Virus record (IMG/VR): IMGVR_UViG_2529293138_000011
Location: 1-40,429 of that record
Length of the DNA stretch: 40,429 nucleotides
Source of the DNA: a virus
Taxonomy: Duplodnaviria > Heunggongvirae > Uroviricota > Caudoviricetes
Direction: 5' to 3' (one strand)
Shown here: one piece after another, positions 11,044-24,117 of the stretch
Layout of the letters: every line of letters starts with the position of its first letter
Position numbering within the stretch: position 1 is the stretch's first letter
Notes under the pieces: generated by a model
What the model was told of the DNA's origin: nothing
Database searches by the model: none
The model's input: the letters and a program-made list of their open reading frames with translations, nothing else
Position numbers and translations under genes: made by a program

Positions 11044-12461
11044 TACTCAATCCTTATCTGGCAGCCAGATAGAGTGACTGGTGACTTCGTAATAACGCGC
11101 AATTTGAAGCCGACATTTTTCCTGATGCGCCCAACTCGCTTCCACAAAACGCGTTTGTCGTAAACGAACGGTTCATTCTGCTCAATCATCTGCTCACGCC
11201 CGTAATTGATGCCGTCAGTGGTTGCAGAGAGAAAAAGGCGGTCAGCATACTGCGCAACGCCAGTTGACGACTCAACCTCAAGGTCGAACACTCTGGCGTT
11301 ATCCGCTTTGAACAACGGAGTAAACAGCAGGTGTTCCTGTTGAAGACCATACTGACTGCTGATATCGAACTGCAATTTCCCGGTCACGGACTCCAGCTTA
11401 TCGCCGCACGTTATCTGATTGCCTTCGTAAATGAAGTCGATAGCGCGGTACACATCGTCATACAGGCCTGTTTTCAGTACACACCATTGCGGACCATTGG
11501 CGCTTGAAGATGCGTCGTACACGAGGACGTGACGCGTAAGATGGATAATCAGCAGTTCATGCGCATCAAATCGCAACGATTCCATCACGCCATCAGCCAG
11601 TTCATCAGCAGTGTAGGAGCGGAGAATTTTCTCAATGCTCGCGCTGGCGATTGGTGACACCTGACCGGAGCCGATGATGTATACAGACGGCGCACCCGTT
11701 GCCGGATTGCTGATGAACGCATAGGAATCAGCAAACGGCGTTTTGCAGTAAGTTCCGGCAATGCCTTTCTGCACCATCAGTGATGGCTGTGCGACATACA
11801 AAGCGGCACCAACGGTGGTTGCCCCAGTCAGGGAAAAATATTCAATCGTCGATGAACCAAAGCAGACGATGAAGTCTCGCCATGTTCCGATGCCGAGGAT
11901 ACCGTCCGGCTGCGATTCTGCGCGATATTGTGCGCTGTAGCGGTCAGGATGCGATTCGTCTTCAAGGTCAGTGATAAACCATGAATCAGTGCCGTCTTTT
12001 GACCACGCATAACGCCCGCGTAAGCGCGTAATGTCACGAACAGAACCTAACTCATACTGCGTGAATCCGCTGTCTGTAGGCCAGTTTGAGACTGTTTTAA
12101 CCGTGCCATCATAACGATACTCGACCAGTTGGCCATTAACGCCTACAGCCTGAGATGTTCGACCATGCGCCATTGATACGCGCCCACTTCCGGCAACATC
12201 ACCGACTTCACTTTCGCCTTTGTAAAGCTTCCCACCACACACGCGATAAACAGCACTCTGCGCCATGTTGTACTCGACGCCGCGAGATACACCGTTCACA
12301 TCAGAGCGTTTGGCAATGCCCGGGAATGAGCGAAGATATCCGCTGCTGTTAAGGATTTCTTTGGGGGTTGCCAGCATATTCACTGGCAGATAGTCGATAT
12401 AGTCGGCGTTTCGGAAGTCTTTGCCGACACCTTTCATAAGCGGAAGTTGCTGAATCGGCAT
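11043..12461 (-). CDS. Tail hub protein, P22 gp10-like
   Basis: 472 aa, same length as P22 gp10, syntenic between gp4 and gp26. Confidence 0.8.
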
Positions 12462-20239: not shown

Positions 20240-20728
20240 TTAATAGCCATCAGAAGTAAGCGCTACAGATTTCAACCCCTCAATGTCATCCTTGGACAGG
20301 GCGAACCATTCACCGTGCTTTCTCTTTGCGGCAAATTTGCGATGAAGCATGTTTTCAGCTTCTCTTCCACCAGGGATCAGGCACTCAAGCTTCAAACAGT
20401 CTGGTCCAGAGTTGCCAAGCGATTTGATGCGTTGTGGAATGTTGGATGAATACCCAATTTTGGTTAGCCCAGTTTTCTTCGATGACAAAACGTATACCTG
20501 AGGAGGTTCTTTTCTCTGGTCTTCCATTACACGTCTCATTGTTGCCATAAGTCCGCCGTGCATCAGCATTTCAACAAAGAACGCTGACCGAACACCTGAC
20601 GACTTAAGCATGCCAGAAAATTCACTTGCCAATTCCATTAACTCTGCGATGTTTTCAGGAACTTTTTGGCAGTTATCTTCCTTGTATAAGGAAATCATTC
20701 TTTGAAGCTTTTCTTCTAATTGGTTCAT
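20240..20728 (-). CDS. GIY-YIG-like (T5orf172/MUG113-type) domain protein, moron
   Basis: From the internal Met MNQLEEKLQRM...; the C-terminal half VYVLSSKKTGLTKIGYSSNIPQRIKSLGNSG...ECLIPGGREAENMLHRKFAAKRKHGEWFALS has the T5orf172-type pattern. The track ORF's upstream extension runs through a terminator hairpin, so the start is placed at 20728. Confidence 0.6.
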   Translation of the reverse strand: MNQLEEKLQRMISLYKEDNCQKVPENIAELMELASEFSGMLKSSGVRSAFFVEMLMHGGLMATMRRVMEDQRKEPPQVYVLSSKKTGLTKIGYSSNIPQRIKSLGNSGPDCLKLECLIPGGREAENMLHRKFAAKRKHGEWFALSKDDIEGLKSVALTSDGY

Positions 20729-20872
20729 AGCGTCTTTACCTTTTAGAAAGTGAGCCTGTCTCACAGAAAAGCCGCCCGAGAGAGGTCGCCACCTATAACG
20801 GCATTTCTCAGGCTCGCTTACTGAAAGGCTCTCGTTAATATGCGCGTGAGATGCGCTGTGAAATTCAGATAT

Positions 20873-20895
20873 AAAAAAGCCCCGCACCGCGAGGC
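20873..20895 (-). terminator. Rho-independent terminator after the lysis cassette
   Basis: On the minus strand: GCCTCGCGGTGCGGGGC followed by TTTTTTAT. Confidence 0.6.
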
Positions 20896-20927
20896 TCATT
20901 AAATGGACTTTGTGATTTGCAAAAAAA

Positions 20928-21365
20928 TTATTTCAGGCACTGAGTCCTGATGTACTCCTGCAGGTAGTTAACCTGCGCGGTTATCCTGTCGATTCCACTT
21001 CGGAGACGGTAATAATTGAGTTCAGCATCTGCTGTAAGTCTTGGGATTTCTCCATTGCCCATGCTGCTGGCTCCGGTCGTTGACTTTGCACAGGTGGCGG
21101 CGACTTGCAGGCGCTTACGCCCAGCAGAAACATCAGCACGGAGGCTTTCGATAGTCGCGTTAGCATCAGCAAGCTCCTTTGTGTATCTGGCGTCGAGTTC
21201 TGCTACATCACGTTGACGCTTCTGCATATCAGCGATGATGGATGTGGCTTTATCGCGCTGCTCTTTGTAGGTCATGGCGTTATCACGGTAATGATTAACA
21301 GCCCATGACAGACAGACGATGATGCAGATAACCAGAGCGGAGATAATCGCGGTTACTCTGCTCAT
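20928..21365 (-). CDS. Rz: Rz i-spanin
   Basis: 145 aa, N-terminal TM then coiled coil, with Rz1 embedded in the +1 frame; follows endolysin R. Confidence 0.85.
20981..21172 (-). CDS. Rz1: Rz1 o-spanin lipoprotein embedded in Rz
   Basis: Embedded ORF with lipobox LLGVSAC followed by the proline-rich segment [16 protein letters not shown]. Exact start uncertain. Confidence 0.7.
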
Positions 21366-21838
21366 ACCTCAATCTCTCTGACCGTTCCGCCTGCTTCTTT
21401 GAATTTTGCAATCAGGTTGTCAGCCTTATGCTCGAACTGACCATAACCAGCGCCCGGCAGTGAAGCCCAGATATTGCTGCAACGGTCGATAGCCTGACGG
21501 ATATCACCGCGATCAATCATCGGTAAAGCGCCACGCTCTTTAATCTGTTGCAGTGCCACAGCGTCCTGGCTTTTCGGAGAGAAGTCTTTCAGGCCAAGCT
21601 GCTTACGATAGGCATCCCACCAACGGGAAAGAAGCTGGTAACGTCCGGCTGCTGTTGATTTGAGTTTGGGGTTTAGCGTGACAAGTTTGCGAGGGTGATC
21701 GGAGTAATCAGTGAATAGCTCCCCGCCTACAATGACGTCATAACCATGATTTCTGGTTTTCTGACGTCCGTTATCAGTTCCCTCTGACCACGCCAGCATA
21801 TCGAGGAACGCCTTACGTTGATTATTGATTTCCACCAT
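21362..21838 (-). CDS. R: Endolysin R (lambda-type lytic transglycosylase)
   Basis: 158 aa [51 protein letters not shown], essentially lambda R. Confidence 0.95.
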
Positions 21839-22145
21839 CTTCTACTCCGGCTTTTTTAGCAGCGAAGCGTTTGATAAGCGAACCAATCGAGTCAGTACCG
21901 ATGTAGCCGATGAACACGCTCGTTATATAAGCGAGATTGCTACTTAGTCCGGCGAAGTCGAGAAGGTCACGAATGAACCAGGCGATAATGGCGCACATCG
22001 TTGCGTCGATTACTGTTTTTGTAAACGCACCGCCATTATATCTGCCGCGAAGGTACGCCATTGCAAACGCAAGGATTGCCCCGATGCCTTGTTCCTTTGC
22101 CGCTAGAATGGCGGCTAACAGGTCATGTTTTTCTGGCATCTTCAT
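21822..22145 (-). CDS. S: Holin S (lambda S107/S105 dual-start motif Met-Lys-Met)
   Basis: 107 aa [64 protein letters not shown], essentially lambda S. Confidence 0.95.
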
Positions 22146-22540
22146 GTCTTACCCCCAATAAGGGGATTTGCTCTATTTAATTAGGAATAAGGTCGATTAC
22201 TGATAGAACAAATCCAGGCTACTGTGTTTAGTAATCAGATTTGTTCGTGACCGATATGCACGGGCAAAACGGCAGGAGGTTGTTAGCGCAACCTCTTGCC
22301 ACCCGCTTTCACGAGGTCATGTGTAGAAGGCCGCAGCATAACTATCACTGATGAATTCAGGATAGCCAGTGGCTACGGCTCAGTTTGGGCTGTGCTGTTT
22401 CTGGGCGGCGATGACGCCTGTACGCATTTGGTGATCCGGTTCTGCTTCCGGTATTCGCTTAATTCAGCACAACGGAAAGAGCACTCGGTGCATTTAAGCC
22501 AAGCCCCATAAGGGAGAATGCTCTTACCTGTTACACAGAT

Positions 22541-22598
22541 ATAAAAAATCCCGAAACCGTTATGCAGGCTCTAATATTACCTGCGAACTGTTTCGGGA
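22541..22598 (-). terminator. Lambda-type tR' terminator (3' end of the 6S-like late leader)
   Basis: The minus strand reads ...CCTGCATAACGGTTTCGGGATTTTTTATATCTG, matching lambda tR' as recalled. Flanking sequence up to S is collinear with lambda. Confidence 0.75.
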
Positions 22599-22730
22599 TT
22601 GCATTTTGCAGACCTCTCAGCCTGCGATGGTTGGAGTTCCAGACGATACGTCGAAGTGACCAACTAGGCGGAATCGGTAGTAAGCGCCGCCTCTTTTTAT
22701 CTCACTACCACAACGAGCGAATTAACCCAT

Positions 22731-23222
22731 CTATCCCATACTGGAGAATTCACCATGATATTTTATCCTGGCATTTTCCATTGCCTTTCTAGCCTCCTCG
22801 ATATCGTCAAAACACCCTACATGAATCCTTTTACCATTAACTCTAATTCTTCCAACCCACTTGTTTGCAGCAGAATTAAAAGTCACCCCCTTCACACCAG
22901 ATGAATTGTTTTTCCTCATCTTGCTGTTCCATGAGTTTTGAGTGTTAGTAACAACACGAAGATTGGCTATCCGGTTATCAGACCTATCACCATTAATATG
23001 GTCAATAACATCGGTTGGCCAATCATTGTAAACCATCAGCCATGCAATTCTATGGACATATAGCCGCATTCCATAAAGTTTTACCTGCAGATATCCATTT
23101 GTTTTATAGCCAACAACAGCACCATAGATAAATCTAGAGGACCGAGGTGGATTCTTCCATGTAAGAATTCCAGTATCTGGATTGTAATTAAAAAGTCTCA
23201 ATGCATCTTCACGTTTTAACAT
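22731..23222 (-). CDS. HNH homing endonuclease with AP2-like DNA-binding domain (moron inside the late leader)
   Basis: 163 aa. HNH motif DHINGDRSDNRIANLRVVTNTQN and an AP2-like segment GVKGVTFNSAANKWVGRIRVNGKRIHVGCFDDIEEARKAMENA. AT-rich. The stop lies immediately 5' of the lambda-homologous ATGGGTTAATTCGCTCG segment. Confidence 0.8.
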   Translation of the reverse strand: MLKREDALRLFNYNPDTGILTWKNPPRSSRFIYGAVVGYKTNGYLQVKLYGMRLYVHRIAWLMVYNDWPTDVIDHINGDRSDNRIANLRVVTNTQNSWNSKMRKNNSSGVKGVTFNSAANKWVGRIRVNGKRIHVGCFDDIEEARKAMENARIKYHGEFSSMG

Positions 23223-23414
23223 AGGCGAACCACATAGATATTAGAGCCTGCTGACATAGAAATATCACCACGAGAGAAGTCGCCAAAAGCGATATTTCTC
23301 AGGCTCTATTCCTATGTGCTCTCGAGTTTATGATGCGCATGTCAGTGCGCTTAGAACTTAAAGATGAGGTGGGTAAAAGCTGAAAGAATGTGAACGGATA
23401 TAAATCTGCCATTC

Positions 23415-23451
23415 TTTGGTCAAATTTACCCAACTTTATTCAAAAAGTCAA
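23415..23451 (-). promoter_or_regulatory. Late promoter pR' with Q-binding element (qut)
   Basis: The minus strand reads TTGACTTTTTGAATAAAGTTGGGTAAATTTGACCAAAGAATGG, near-identical to lambda pR' (-35 TTGACT, 17-bp spacer carrying the Q-binding element, -10 TAAATT), about 45 bp downstream of the Q stop. Confidence 0.75.
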
Positions 23452-23493
23452 TATCATGCCGTTAATATGTTGCCATCCGTGGCAATCATGCTG

Positions 23494-24117
23494 CTAACGT
23501 GTGACCGCATTCAAAATATTGTCTGCGATTGACTCTTCCTTGTGGCATTGCACCACCAGAGCGTCATACAGCGGCTTAACAGTGCGTGACCAGGTGGGTT
23601 GGGTAAGGTTTGGGATTAGCATCGTTACAGCGCGATATGCGGCGCTTGCTGGCATCCTGGAATAGCCGACGCCTTTGCATCTTCCGCACTCTTTCTCGAC
23701 AACTCTCCCCCACTGCTCTGTTTTGGCAATATCAACGGCCCGGCCAGTACCGTGGCAATCTCTGCATCTTGCGCCCGGTGTCGCGGCACTACGGCAATAA
23801 TCCGCATAAGCGAATGTTGCGAGCACTTGCAGCACCTTTGCCTTAGTATTTCCTTCGAGCTTTGCCACACCACGGTATTTCCCCGATACCTTGTGTGCAA
23901 ATTGCATCAGATAGTTGATAGCCTTTTGTTTGTCGTTCTGGCTGAGTTCATGCTTACCGCAGAATGCAGCCATTCCGAATCCGGCTTGTGATTGCGCCAT
24001 CCCCATAGCAGCCATCACATCAGTACCGGAAAGAGAGTCAGAAGCCGTGGCCCGTGGTGAGTCGCTCATCATCGGGCTTTTTGGCGAATGAAATTTAGCT
24101 ACGCTTTCGAGTCTCAT
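23494..24117 (-). CDS. Q: Late antiterminator Q (lambda type)
   Basis: 207 aa MRLESVAKFHSPKSPMMSDSPRATASDSLSGTDVMAAMGMAQSQAGFGMAAFCGKHELSQNDKQKAINYLMQF, essentially lambda Q. Confidence 0.95.
   Translation of the reverse strand: MRLESVAKFHSPKSPMMSDSPRATASDSLSGTDVMAAMGMAQSQAGFGMAAFCGKHELSQNDKQKAINYLMQFAHKVSGKYRGVAKLEGNTKAKVLQVLATFAYADYCRSAATPGARCRDCHGTGRAVDIAKTEQWGRVVEKECGRCKGVGYSRMPASAAYRAVTMLIPNLTQPTWSRTVKPLYDALVVQCHKEESIADNILNAVTR

Follow-up and report, generated by a model that had tools for sequence, protein, structure and literature searches.

A conserved RNA leader with two pseudoknots precedes unrelated accessory genes in lambdoid and P22-like phages and may gate their translation

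The DNA analysed here (the window) is the 40,429-nt stretch covering positions 1 to 40,429 of IMG/VR record IMGVR_UViG_2529293138_000011, a lambdoid/P22-like phage genome with its late genes on the minus strand. We found that two unrelated late-region genes, one encoding a T5orf172 protein and the other an HNH protein, are preceded by elements A and B, two copies of one structured leader whose relatives occur across lambdoid and P22-like phages. The leader is a conserved sense-strand RNA fold with two pseudoknots, and the Shine-Dalgarno (SD) sequence of the following gene lies inside one of its helices. We think it fairly probable that the leader is a portable cis-acting translational gate for downstream accessory genes. 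The RNA family itself is well supported and apparently undescribed.

An earlier note on this DNA had pointed to shared sequence blocks upstream of the two genes, and these lie where it placed them, in the coding orientation (minus strand). When 20729-20930 and 23223-23440, both on the minus strand, are aligned locally, the score is 58, far above 1,000 dinucleotide shuffles (17.1 ± 2.3, maximum 27; z=18), and both local and MAFFT alignment delimit a core of about 125 nt that starts with GCGCA... and ends immediately upstream of each start codon. In a search of the window, a covariance model built from relatives detects A (155.6 bits; E=8e-41) and B (76.5 bits; E=3.5e-19), followed by the reverse strands of A and B themselves (at most 19 bits). 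Neither alignment nor covariance model search finds a third copy in the window, the rest of which is unlike A and B. A and B are homologous, diverged copies of one leader family. The note had also read the genes correctly (Pfam finds T5orf172/MUG113 in one product and HNH_3 plus AP2 in the other), and its picture of a common 5′ element before two unrelated genes in two late-region slots holds; its span of 20729-20900 contains the shared block but also takes in the terminator behind Rz (20873-20897), which is not shared. The two elements are:

20729-20856, minus strand: element A, the complete leader structure, P0 through the last base ahead of the ATG (covariance model hit 20723-20867; minimum free energy (MFE) folding gives the same long hairpin)
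23223-23350, minus strand: element B, a diverged leader copy (covariance model, 76.5 bits; MFE folding gives the same hairpin)

Read on the gene strand, the leader is about 115-130 nt long across the family and consists, 5′ to 3′, of a hairpin (P0, general form GCGC-N7-GCGC), a linker and a long imperfect hairpin (P1-P2-P3), with a further hairpin, P4, added in long forms. In pseudoknot PK1, the 6 linker nucleotides that immediately precede P1 pair with the 3′ side of the apical loop; in pseudoknot PK2, the P0 loop pairs with a 6-7-nt bulge between P3 and P2. The parts of A and B are located as follows:

20842-20856, minus strand: P0 of A (GCGC-AUCUCAC-GCGC), with its loop UCUCAC (20846-20851) as the 5′ strand of PK2; P0 is 99.7% paired
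20829-20834, minus strand: 5′ strand of PK1 in A, CGAGAG, pairing with CUCUCG at 20777-20782
20821-20828, minus strand: 5′ strand of P1 in A, CCUUUCAG, the anti-SD (alignment and folding)
20809-20828, minus strand: 5′ strands of P1, P1b and P2 in A (P2 GAGCCUG at 20809-20815)
20765-20808, minus strand: P3 of A, AGAAAUGCCG (20799-20808) with CGGCUUUUCU (20765-20774); 8 of 9 P3 pairs changed on both sides
20777-20794, minus strand: the 3′ strand of PK1 in A, CUCUCG (20777-20782), and hairpin P4 (20783-20794), both enclosed by P3
20759-20764, minus strand: 6-nt bulge GUGAGA between P3 and P2 of A, the 3′ strand of PK2, covarying with the P0 loop
20739-20758, minus strand: 3′ strands of P2 (CAGGCUC at 20752-20758), P1b and P1 in A (alignment and folding)
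20739-20746, minus strand: 3′ strand of P1 in A, CUAAAAGG, which contains the SD AAGG
23335-23350, minus strand: P0 of B, loop CUGACAU at 23339-23345
23319-23324, minus strand: 5′ strand of PK1 in B, CGAGAG, pairing with CUCUCG at 23271-23276
23312-23318, minus strand: 5′ strand of P1 in B, CACAUAG, pairing with CUAUGUG at 23231-23237
23300-23306, minus strand: 5′ strand of P2 in B, GAGCCUG, pairing with CAGGCUC at 23244-23250
23289-23299, minus strand: 5′ strand of P3 in B, pairing with 23258-23268, next to the 3′ strand of PK2, AUGUCAG (23251-23257)

Element B folds into the same hairpin as A (MFE −50.4 kcal/mol, z=−4.7), and relative to A its P1 and PK2 are fully compensated: P1 reads CCUUUCAG/CUAAAAGG in A versus CACAUAG/CUAUGUG in B, and PK2 reads UCUCAC/GUGAGA in A and CUGACAU/AUGUCAG in B. 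The same behaviour extends through the family (83 copies aligned, giving 43 representatives below 85% identity). All six PK2 pairs have changed on both sides, with further versions UCGCAC/GUGCGA, UCGUAC/GUACGA, UUCACC/GGUGAA, UCCACC/GGUGGA, UCACCC/GGGUGA, UCACAC/GUGUGA, CCCCAC/GUGGGA, UUCGCGU/ACGCGAA and ACGCUC/GAGCGU. PK1 occurs as CGAGAG/CUCUCG, CCCGAG/CUCGGG, GAAAG/CUUUC, CGAUA/UAUCG, CGAGAC/GUCUCG, CCAGAG/CUCUGG, CCAAGA/UCUUGG, CACAGA/UCUGUG and CCGCAG/CUGCGG, and as ACCGA/UCGGU in P22. P2 (GAGCCUG/CAGGCUC) is near-invariant, P3 keeps about 10 bp of highly variable sequence, and P4 varies as AUGGU/ACCAU or AGUC/GACU, as read from the alignment.

Conserved secondary structure is backed by covariation. 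In a sequence-only MAFFT alignment of 67 members, 88.7% of cells in the whole structure are paired, versus 38-55% when partners are slid, and 20 pairs have changed on both sides, which 0 of 500 shuffles reach. The nested helices are 93.5% paired (37-50% slid), with 23 of 29 pairs changed on both sides (0/500 shuffles), and RNAalifold and single-sequence MFE folding independently recover these helices, P0 to P3. The two pseudoknots were assessed in a model-based alignment of the 83 copies, made with a covariance model that contained no pseudoknots; here 86.2% of cells are paired (35-61% slid), 10 of 12 pairs have changed on both sides (a pair count reached by 7 of 500 shuffles) and the covariation score is 0.305 versus 0.128 (0/500 shuffles). 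Two observations point to the gene strand as the functional RNA: G-U cells exceed A-C cells (148 versus 77), and wherever the flanks can be read, the copy lies in the same orientation as an open reading frame (ORF) that starts 7-11 nt past the paired SD. These data back the regulatory-RNA option that the earlier note had listed. Since no spare nucleotide separates PK1 from P1, P2 from P3, P3 from PK2 or PK2 from P2, the helices probably coexist as side-by-side stacks, which we would model as P1 plus P2 (about 20 bp) beside P3 plus PK1 (about 18 layers), with PK2 bridging the turn and P0 projecting; the result would be a single compact fold in which the SD is locked.

Conservation at the level of DNA, with the block serving as recombination handle, operator or promoter of moron cassettes and the RNA pairing being incidental, is a very improbable explanation and already largely refuted by this covariation. 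The compensatory changes are long-range, non-palindromic and pseudoknotted, as a protein-binding palindrome would not foresee, and G-U pairs exceed A-C pairs. The block does stop exactly at mosaic junctions, the near-identical A type amid varied flanks fits frequent homologous exchange, and the A copy of the window holds a weak TTCACA-16-TATTAA match, read from the sequence. The handle role is compatible with an RNA role but leaves the covariation unexplained. As for a sigma-70 promoter or operator, the hexamer positions vary freely across the family (TATTAA, CATCAA, CCTCAA, TAACAA and others), a promoter scan finds PR′ alone and none at either leader copy, and P0 would precede any such start; the promoter option raised earlier fails on these counts. 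No IHF consensus site was seen by eye in the leader DNA. Coding was also rejected, since indels among members are not multiples of three and substitutions compensate pairs, as was a leader peptide, the mini-ORF AUG-CCG-UUA-UAG within A being missing from B and other types.

The block is portable, and its edges are sharp. Upstream similarity ends at the first base of the GCGC hairpin and downstream similarity at the SD or ATG, beyond which any kind of ORF may follow, such that the edges of the conserved block coincide with those of the fold. This suggests that the leader is also a recombination handle, and a mobility role, as had been proposed, stands in the weak sense that conservation stops at mosaic junctions and in no stronger one. 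In many relatives the leader begins directly after TTTTTTAT, and the terminators before A (20873-20897) and at the lambda-like tR′ (22550-22570) have a common tail, ...TTTTTTATATCTG; such a junction may be favoured for the insertion of cassettes.

We then examined the genes behind 186 leader copies, clustering the downstream ORFs by protein. They form 36 clusters and are mostly Rha and KilA-N proteins; a single Rha cluster accounts for 105 of the ORFs, with 44 distinct sequences, and the other cargo comprises several KilA-N architectures, P22_AR_N, Bro-N, T5orf172, HNH_3 with AP2, HNH_3 with zf-His_Me, plain HNH, glycosyltransferase-like, TerB, tail-tip-like and unknown proteins. As cargo of the HNH and T5orf172 kinds is in the minority, the proposed tie to homing-endonuclease cassettes does not survive: because the cargo is diverse, the leader is not endonuclease-specific and autoregulation by the cargo protein is excluded. 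A group I intron with a homing endonuclease ORF was likewise rejected (no Intron_gpI match, a block only 5′ of the ORF, intergenic sites), as was a HEARO or IscB omega-RNA (RF02033; no Rfam match, a 163-aa HNH_3+AP2 protein that lacks RuvC, most cargoes not nucleases). Behind short-type leaders we observed a cargo family whose members begin with MGxKIITLSGAATDVLYALFFRGAL and finish in ...PGG(L/I)xxxxxR, the part in between being highly variable (loci L001 4279-5007, L129, L131, L213 and L232); it is N15 gp59-like and has no Pfam match. Other cargo proteins match Phage_Tail_Tip. Two leader-plus-ORF cassettes stand in the late region of many phages and prophages, including phi80 and Stx2a phages (L001 4157-4286; L123 143-292 and 1509-1659; L227, L232, L194 and L091), and in Stx2a phages a P22_AR_N antirepressor-like ORF and then a Rha-like ORF each have their own leader copy. 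In L019 (B copy at 11107-11253) and L085 an intact B-type leader precedes an HNH cargo that has an internal deletion (54 aa) or is cut short (46 aa), so that the leader outlives its gene in some prophages.

The predicted link between fold and translation is the position of the SD. The 3′ strand of P1 carries it 7-11 nt before the start codon, in a conserved helix whose spacing to the start is fixed (CUAAAAGG in A, CUAUGUG in B). For the SD core, the predicted probability of being unpaired has a median of 0.07 (75 distinct copies), pseudoknot energies being left out. Because the SD lies in P1, the ribosome-binding site is predicted to be closed and translation to be low or conditional. In the gate that we propose, the folded leader would hold the ribosome-binding site closed through the 3′ strand of P1; the same unit, from P0 to the SD or ATG, would have been set before dozens of unrelated accessory genes, with the flanks changing at its edges; and the genes behind it, many of which encode DNA-binding, antirepressor-like or nucleolytic proteins, would be translated weakly or conditionally despite lying in a very strongly transcribed operon.

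Several points weigh against a simple gate. Occlusion of the ribosome-binding site is predicted from pairing only. P1 is the least regular helix (87.8% paired, with recurrent C-A and U-U mismatches), and therefore the lock may be weak or tuned; with no nucleotide between them, P1 and PK1 could also be mutually exclusive. Because many family members are close relatives, some covariation counts reflect shared ancestry, not independent events. Two pseudoknots and a near-invariant P2 exceed what a plain attenuator needs, which hints at a ligand, a protein partner or catalysis. Finally, the phi80 rha and P22 ORF201 genes both lie behind the leader, and Henthorn and Friedman are said to have found in 1995 that these genes harm phage growth only in IHF-deficient hosts; the phi80 rha phenotype, if it is as reported, conflicts with an absolute lock, under which the cargo would never be expressed.

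The elaborate fold and the near-invariant P2 give two rivals, a sensor and a processing element, real standing. As a tentative and distinctly less probable alternative, the leader may be a genuine switch, either a riboswitch or the operator of some protein or RNA that acts in trans, in which binding at the double-pseudoknot pocket decides whether P1 closes; the ligand would be a metabolite, ion, second messenger, or host or phage factor. Its complexity, with two covarying pseudoknots, equals that of known riboswitch aptamers; P2 and its flanks are near-invariant, as suits specific recognition; a zero-nucleotide PK1/P1 joint is frequent in switching helices; and the conserved P1 mismatches suggest marginal stability. 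The harm reportedly done by rha and ORF201 in IHF-deficient hosts alone would make control by the state of the host plausible. However, the cargo genes have no common pathway that would indicate a ligand, Rfam contains no matching aptamer, the diversity of cargo excludes autoregulation, and a conserved alternative pairing that frees the SD was not found, the candidate CUUUCAG/CUGAGA being unconserved in B and in short types.

An RNA processing or stability element is less probable still. In this view the long late transcript would be cut before the cargo gene, with the leader acting as a substrate of the RNase III type or as a self-cleaving ribozyme; the cut would either free or activate the ribosome-binding site, as in the lambda N leader, or yield a protected 5′ end. 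The P1-P2-P3 hairpin, about 30 bp with internal loops, is RNase III-like and sits within a polycistronic late transcript directly past a terminator hairpin, and small ribozymes are often pseudoknotted and phage-associated. Yet RNase III has no need of pseudoknots, no known ribozyme family matches, and unpaired nucleotides that are obviously invariant, of the kind found in active sites, are lacking. We also noted in the Stx2a phage Stx2_EH0505 (L124, 1509-1648) an 11-nt deletion between CGCGCAT repeats that removes the 5′ half of P0 and the loop; judged from its sequence, this would be a natural knock-out of PK2 in one Stx2a lineage, the sister L123 being intact.

How the leader is transcribed bears on the gate that we favour, and for this the surrounding genes of the window are needed:

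24117-23494, minus strand: Q, upstream of the late promoter PR′
23423-23451, minus strand: late promoter PR′ (TTGACT-17-TAAATT; promoter scan), downstream of Q and about 70 nt upstream of element B
22732-23418, minus strand: 687-bp segment without counterpart in lambda (BLAST against lambda), made up of some 70 nt of upstream leader, then element B and its HNH ORF
22731-23222, minus strand: cargo of B, a 163-aa HNH_3 + AP2 endonuclease-like protein (Pfam PF13392, 5.7e-17; PF00847, 5e-08)
S, R and Rz, minus strand: after the 6S/tR′ segment, with the end of Rz at 20928
20873-20897, minus strand: intrinsic terminator after Rz (GAGCCTCGCGGTGCGGGGC plus T-run; terminator scan), 16 nt upstream of element A
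20240-20728, minus strand: cargo of A, a 162-aa MUG113/T5orf172 protein (GIY-YIG superfamily), ATG at 20726-20728 (Pfam PF13455, 6.6e-15; PF10544, 1.7e-10)

Element A sits in the late-region slot that separates Rz from the packaging genes, its T5orf172 gene being followed by the small and then the large terminase genes. The terminator at 20873-20897 accompanies element A and lies outside the shared fold. Such an intrinsic terminator (hairpin plus U-run) stands before 62 of the 83 copies, the distance from its end to P0 being 2-20 nt, or as much as 44 nt in two of them, and in many copies its U-run directly abuts P0. Because of this upstream terminator and the lack of a private promoter, A-type leaders would be reached only by Q-modified polymerase.

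Element B occupies the classic PR′-proximal moron site. The PR′ region is 97% identical to lambda 44483-44584 by BLAST, with window 23520-23419 corresponding to that lambda interval and window 22731-21117 to lambda 44590-46235. The 687-bp segment replaces 5 nt at the PR′ start-site region, upstream of 6S RNA and tR′ (BLAST against lambda and comparison with P22 PR′), and the HNH stop codon directly abuts lambda-homologous 6S sequence, a lambda-like 6S/tR′ segment separating the HNH gene from S, R and Rz. PR′ is constitutive in lambda, and because of this the B and HNH message would be transcribed even in the lysogen; the insertion at the PR′ start would give a constitutive transcript of about 0.9 kb that carries the HNH message even when Q is absent. 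By analogy, it is for B in the lysogen that a translational lock should matter most.

Two other roles for an RNA in this position can be weighed. The two-hairpin antiterminator RNA HK022 put differs in architecture from the leader, which is pseudoknotted and encloses an SD, although no put-specific model was run; a put-like role is unlikely for B because antitermination between PR′ and tR′ would turn on the lysis genes in the absence of Q. That the leader is the gene of a trans-acting small RNA (sRNA), released from the late or PR′ transcript, is the least probable of the explanations and close to negligible: lambdoid moron sites downstream of PR′ do encode sRNAs (PMC4104026) and B lies inside the constitutive PR′ transcript, but the element always adjoins an ORF start with the SD within P1, lacks its own 3′ terminator and, in A-type copies, has no promoter.

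The family belongs to lambdoid and P22-like phages and prophages of Enterobacterales, including phi80, P22, HK620 and Stx2a phages. The A type is found nearly unchanged in more than 170 phage records, among them HK106, phi80, HK620, HK639, P22-like Salmonella phages, phages of Klebsiella, Enterobacter and Hafnia and many Stx2a-converting phages, and in more than 120 IMG/VR contigs. It occurs in 955 of 5,426 complete Escherichia coli genomes, about one in six, at 1-4 copies each, and 403 E. coli records match it at 99% identity or better though the flanks differ; the B type is rare (19 of 5,426). These frequencies and the phage contexts rule out a host interspersed repeat of the REP/ERIC type, the ubiquitous repeat against which the earlier note had wanted the motif checked. 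In P22 the copy that precedes ORF201 is diverged (53 bits), and no copy was found in lambda. Most copies lie between the lysis cassette and the packaging genes, and every annotated phage context inspected is downstream of the lysis genes or at the phage genome end. In the pattern scan across genomes, family members were chosen by a downstream SD-motif filter; matches outside Enterobacterales, which were not scored with the covariance model, were mostly chance matches that failed it.

Annotation has passed over the leader. Among the E. coli matches listed, no RefSeq feature lies under it. A mechanical 219-aa ORF in the window (20240-20899) runs through leader A, database coding sequence (CDS) starts extend into the leader for phi80 rha (L001, 2666) and P22 ORF201 (L256, 4313), and databases place small ORFs over it on either strand, with opposite-strand 'hypothetical proteins' in SPN3UB and JEP4 (L125 1470-1628; L134 1502-1669). 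These starts and small ORFs are probably mis-annotations, and the leader gives a concrete reason to shift several database CDS starts. Rfam 15 (4,227 models), run over the whole window at gathering thresholds, reports only the sar antisense RNA, full-length at 4189-4256 on the plus strand (RF00262, 92 bits), which marks a P22-type immI/ant region in a phage with a lambda-like Q-S-R-Rz segment. At E up to 10, a search of 20650-23500 and of the isolated elements returned sub-threshold chance matches only (miRNA precursors, and rimP over the terminator). Keyword and exact-sequence literature searches found nothing on the leader and no shared structured leader reported for morons. The main text of two large structured-RNA catalogues (PMC10690425, PMC8040213) mentions no Rha, KilA or lambdoid contexts, though their supplements may hold the leader, and a preprint on the Pas sRNA and a study of Hfq in enterohaemorrhagic E. 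coli concern other prophage RNAs.

The leader nevertheless resembles several known systems in function, though it belongs to none of them. Like the alpha-operon S4 site, the rpsO/S15 site and the T4 gene 32 leader, it is a cis-acting 5′ leader with a pseudoknot at the SD or start that would control access of the 30S subunit, and the S4 site is also a double pseudoknot. Those operators, however, are bound by their own products, whereas the cargo proteins here are mutually unrelated, and so any partner of the leader must be generic; they have no sequence or covariance-model similarity to it, and its topology differs, joining a hairpin loop to an internal bulge and a 5′ linker to an apical loop. 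The preQ1-II and SAM-II/SAM-V riboswitches likewise have a compact pseudoknot fold whose closing helix holds the ribosome-binding site, but the leader is larger, has two pseudoknots, matches no Rfam model and has neither a candidate ligand nor a metabolic theme downstream. In RNase III-dependent control of the lambda N leader and cIII, long imperfect hairpins also occlude the ribosome-binding site and set translation; these act in early transcripts, are gene-specific and are not pseudoknotted, in contrast to a leader of late-operon and moron slots that serves many genes. P22 sar and P1/P7 c4 also restrain antirepressor-type genes (relatives of Ant, KilA and Rha) at the RNA level in temperate phages, but as separate antisense transcripts that pair with a target, whereas the leader folds on itself in cis and matches neither family.

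Morons of lambdoid phages are said to have been treated by Juhala and colleagues in 2000. Like the leader cassettes, they are accessory genes between conserved late-operon modules and flanked by terminators (PMC4104026); the moron concept, however, is of a gene with its own promoter and terminator, and the leader cassettes have a conserved structured RNA leader in place of a private promoter.

Lambdoid phages are very well studied, and yet this leader is unannotated in phi80, P22, HK620 and the Stx2a-converting phages. For RNA biology it offers a new, compact and well-supported fold in a tractable host. There is a modest chance that lambdoid and P22-like phages (Stx2a, phi80 and P22 among them) share in this leader a new class of sensing RNA that couples translation of antirepressor-like proteins (Rha, KilA-N and Ant/Bro) and nucleases to a cellular signal, and if so it could explain the harm that rha and ORF201 reportedly do only in IHF-deficient hosts. 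Under the gate that we consider the more probable reading, the leader appears to be a reusable control module, such that any accessory gene placed behind it would come under a regime of terminator plus locked ribosome-binding site. Phages could thereby tolerate potentially toxic nucleases and DNA-binding proteins although the late operon is transcribed very strongly and, in the case of copy B, within the constitutive PR′ transcript of the lysogen.

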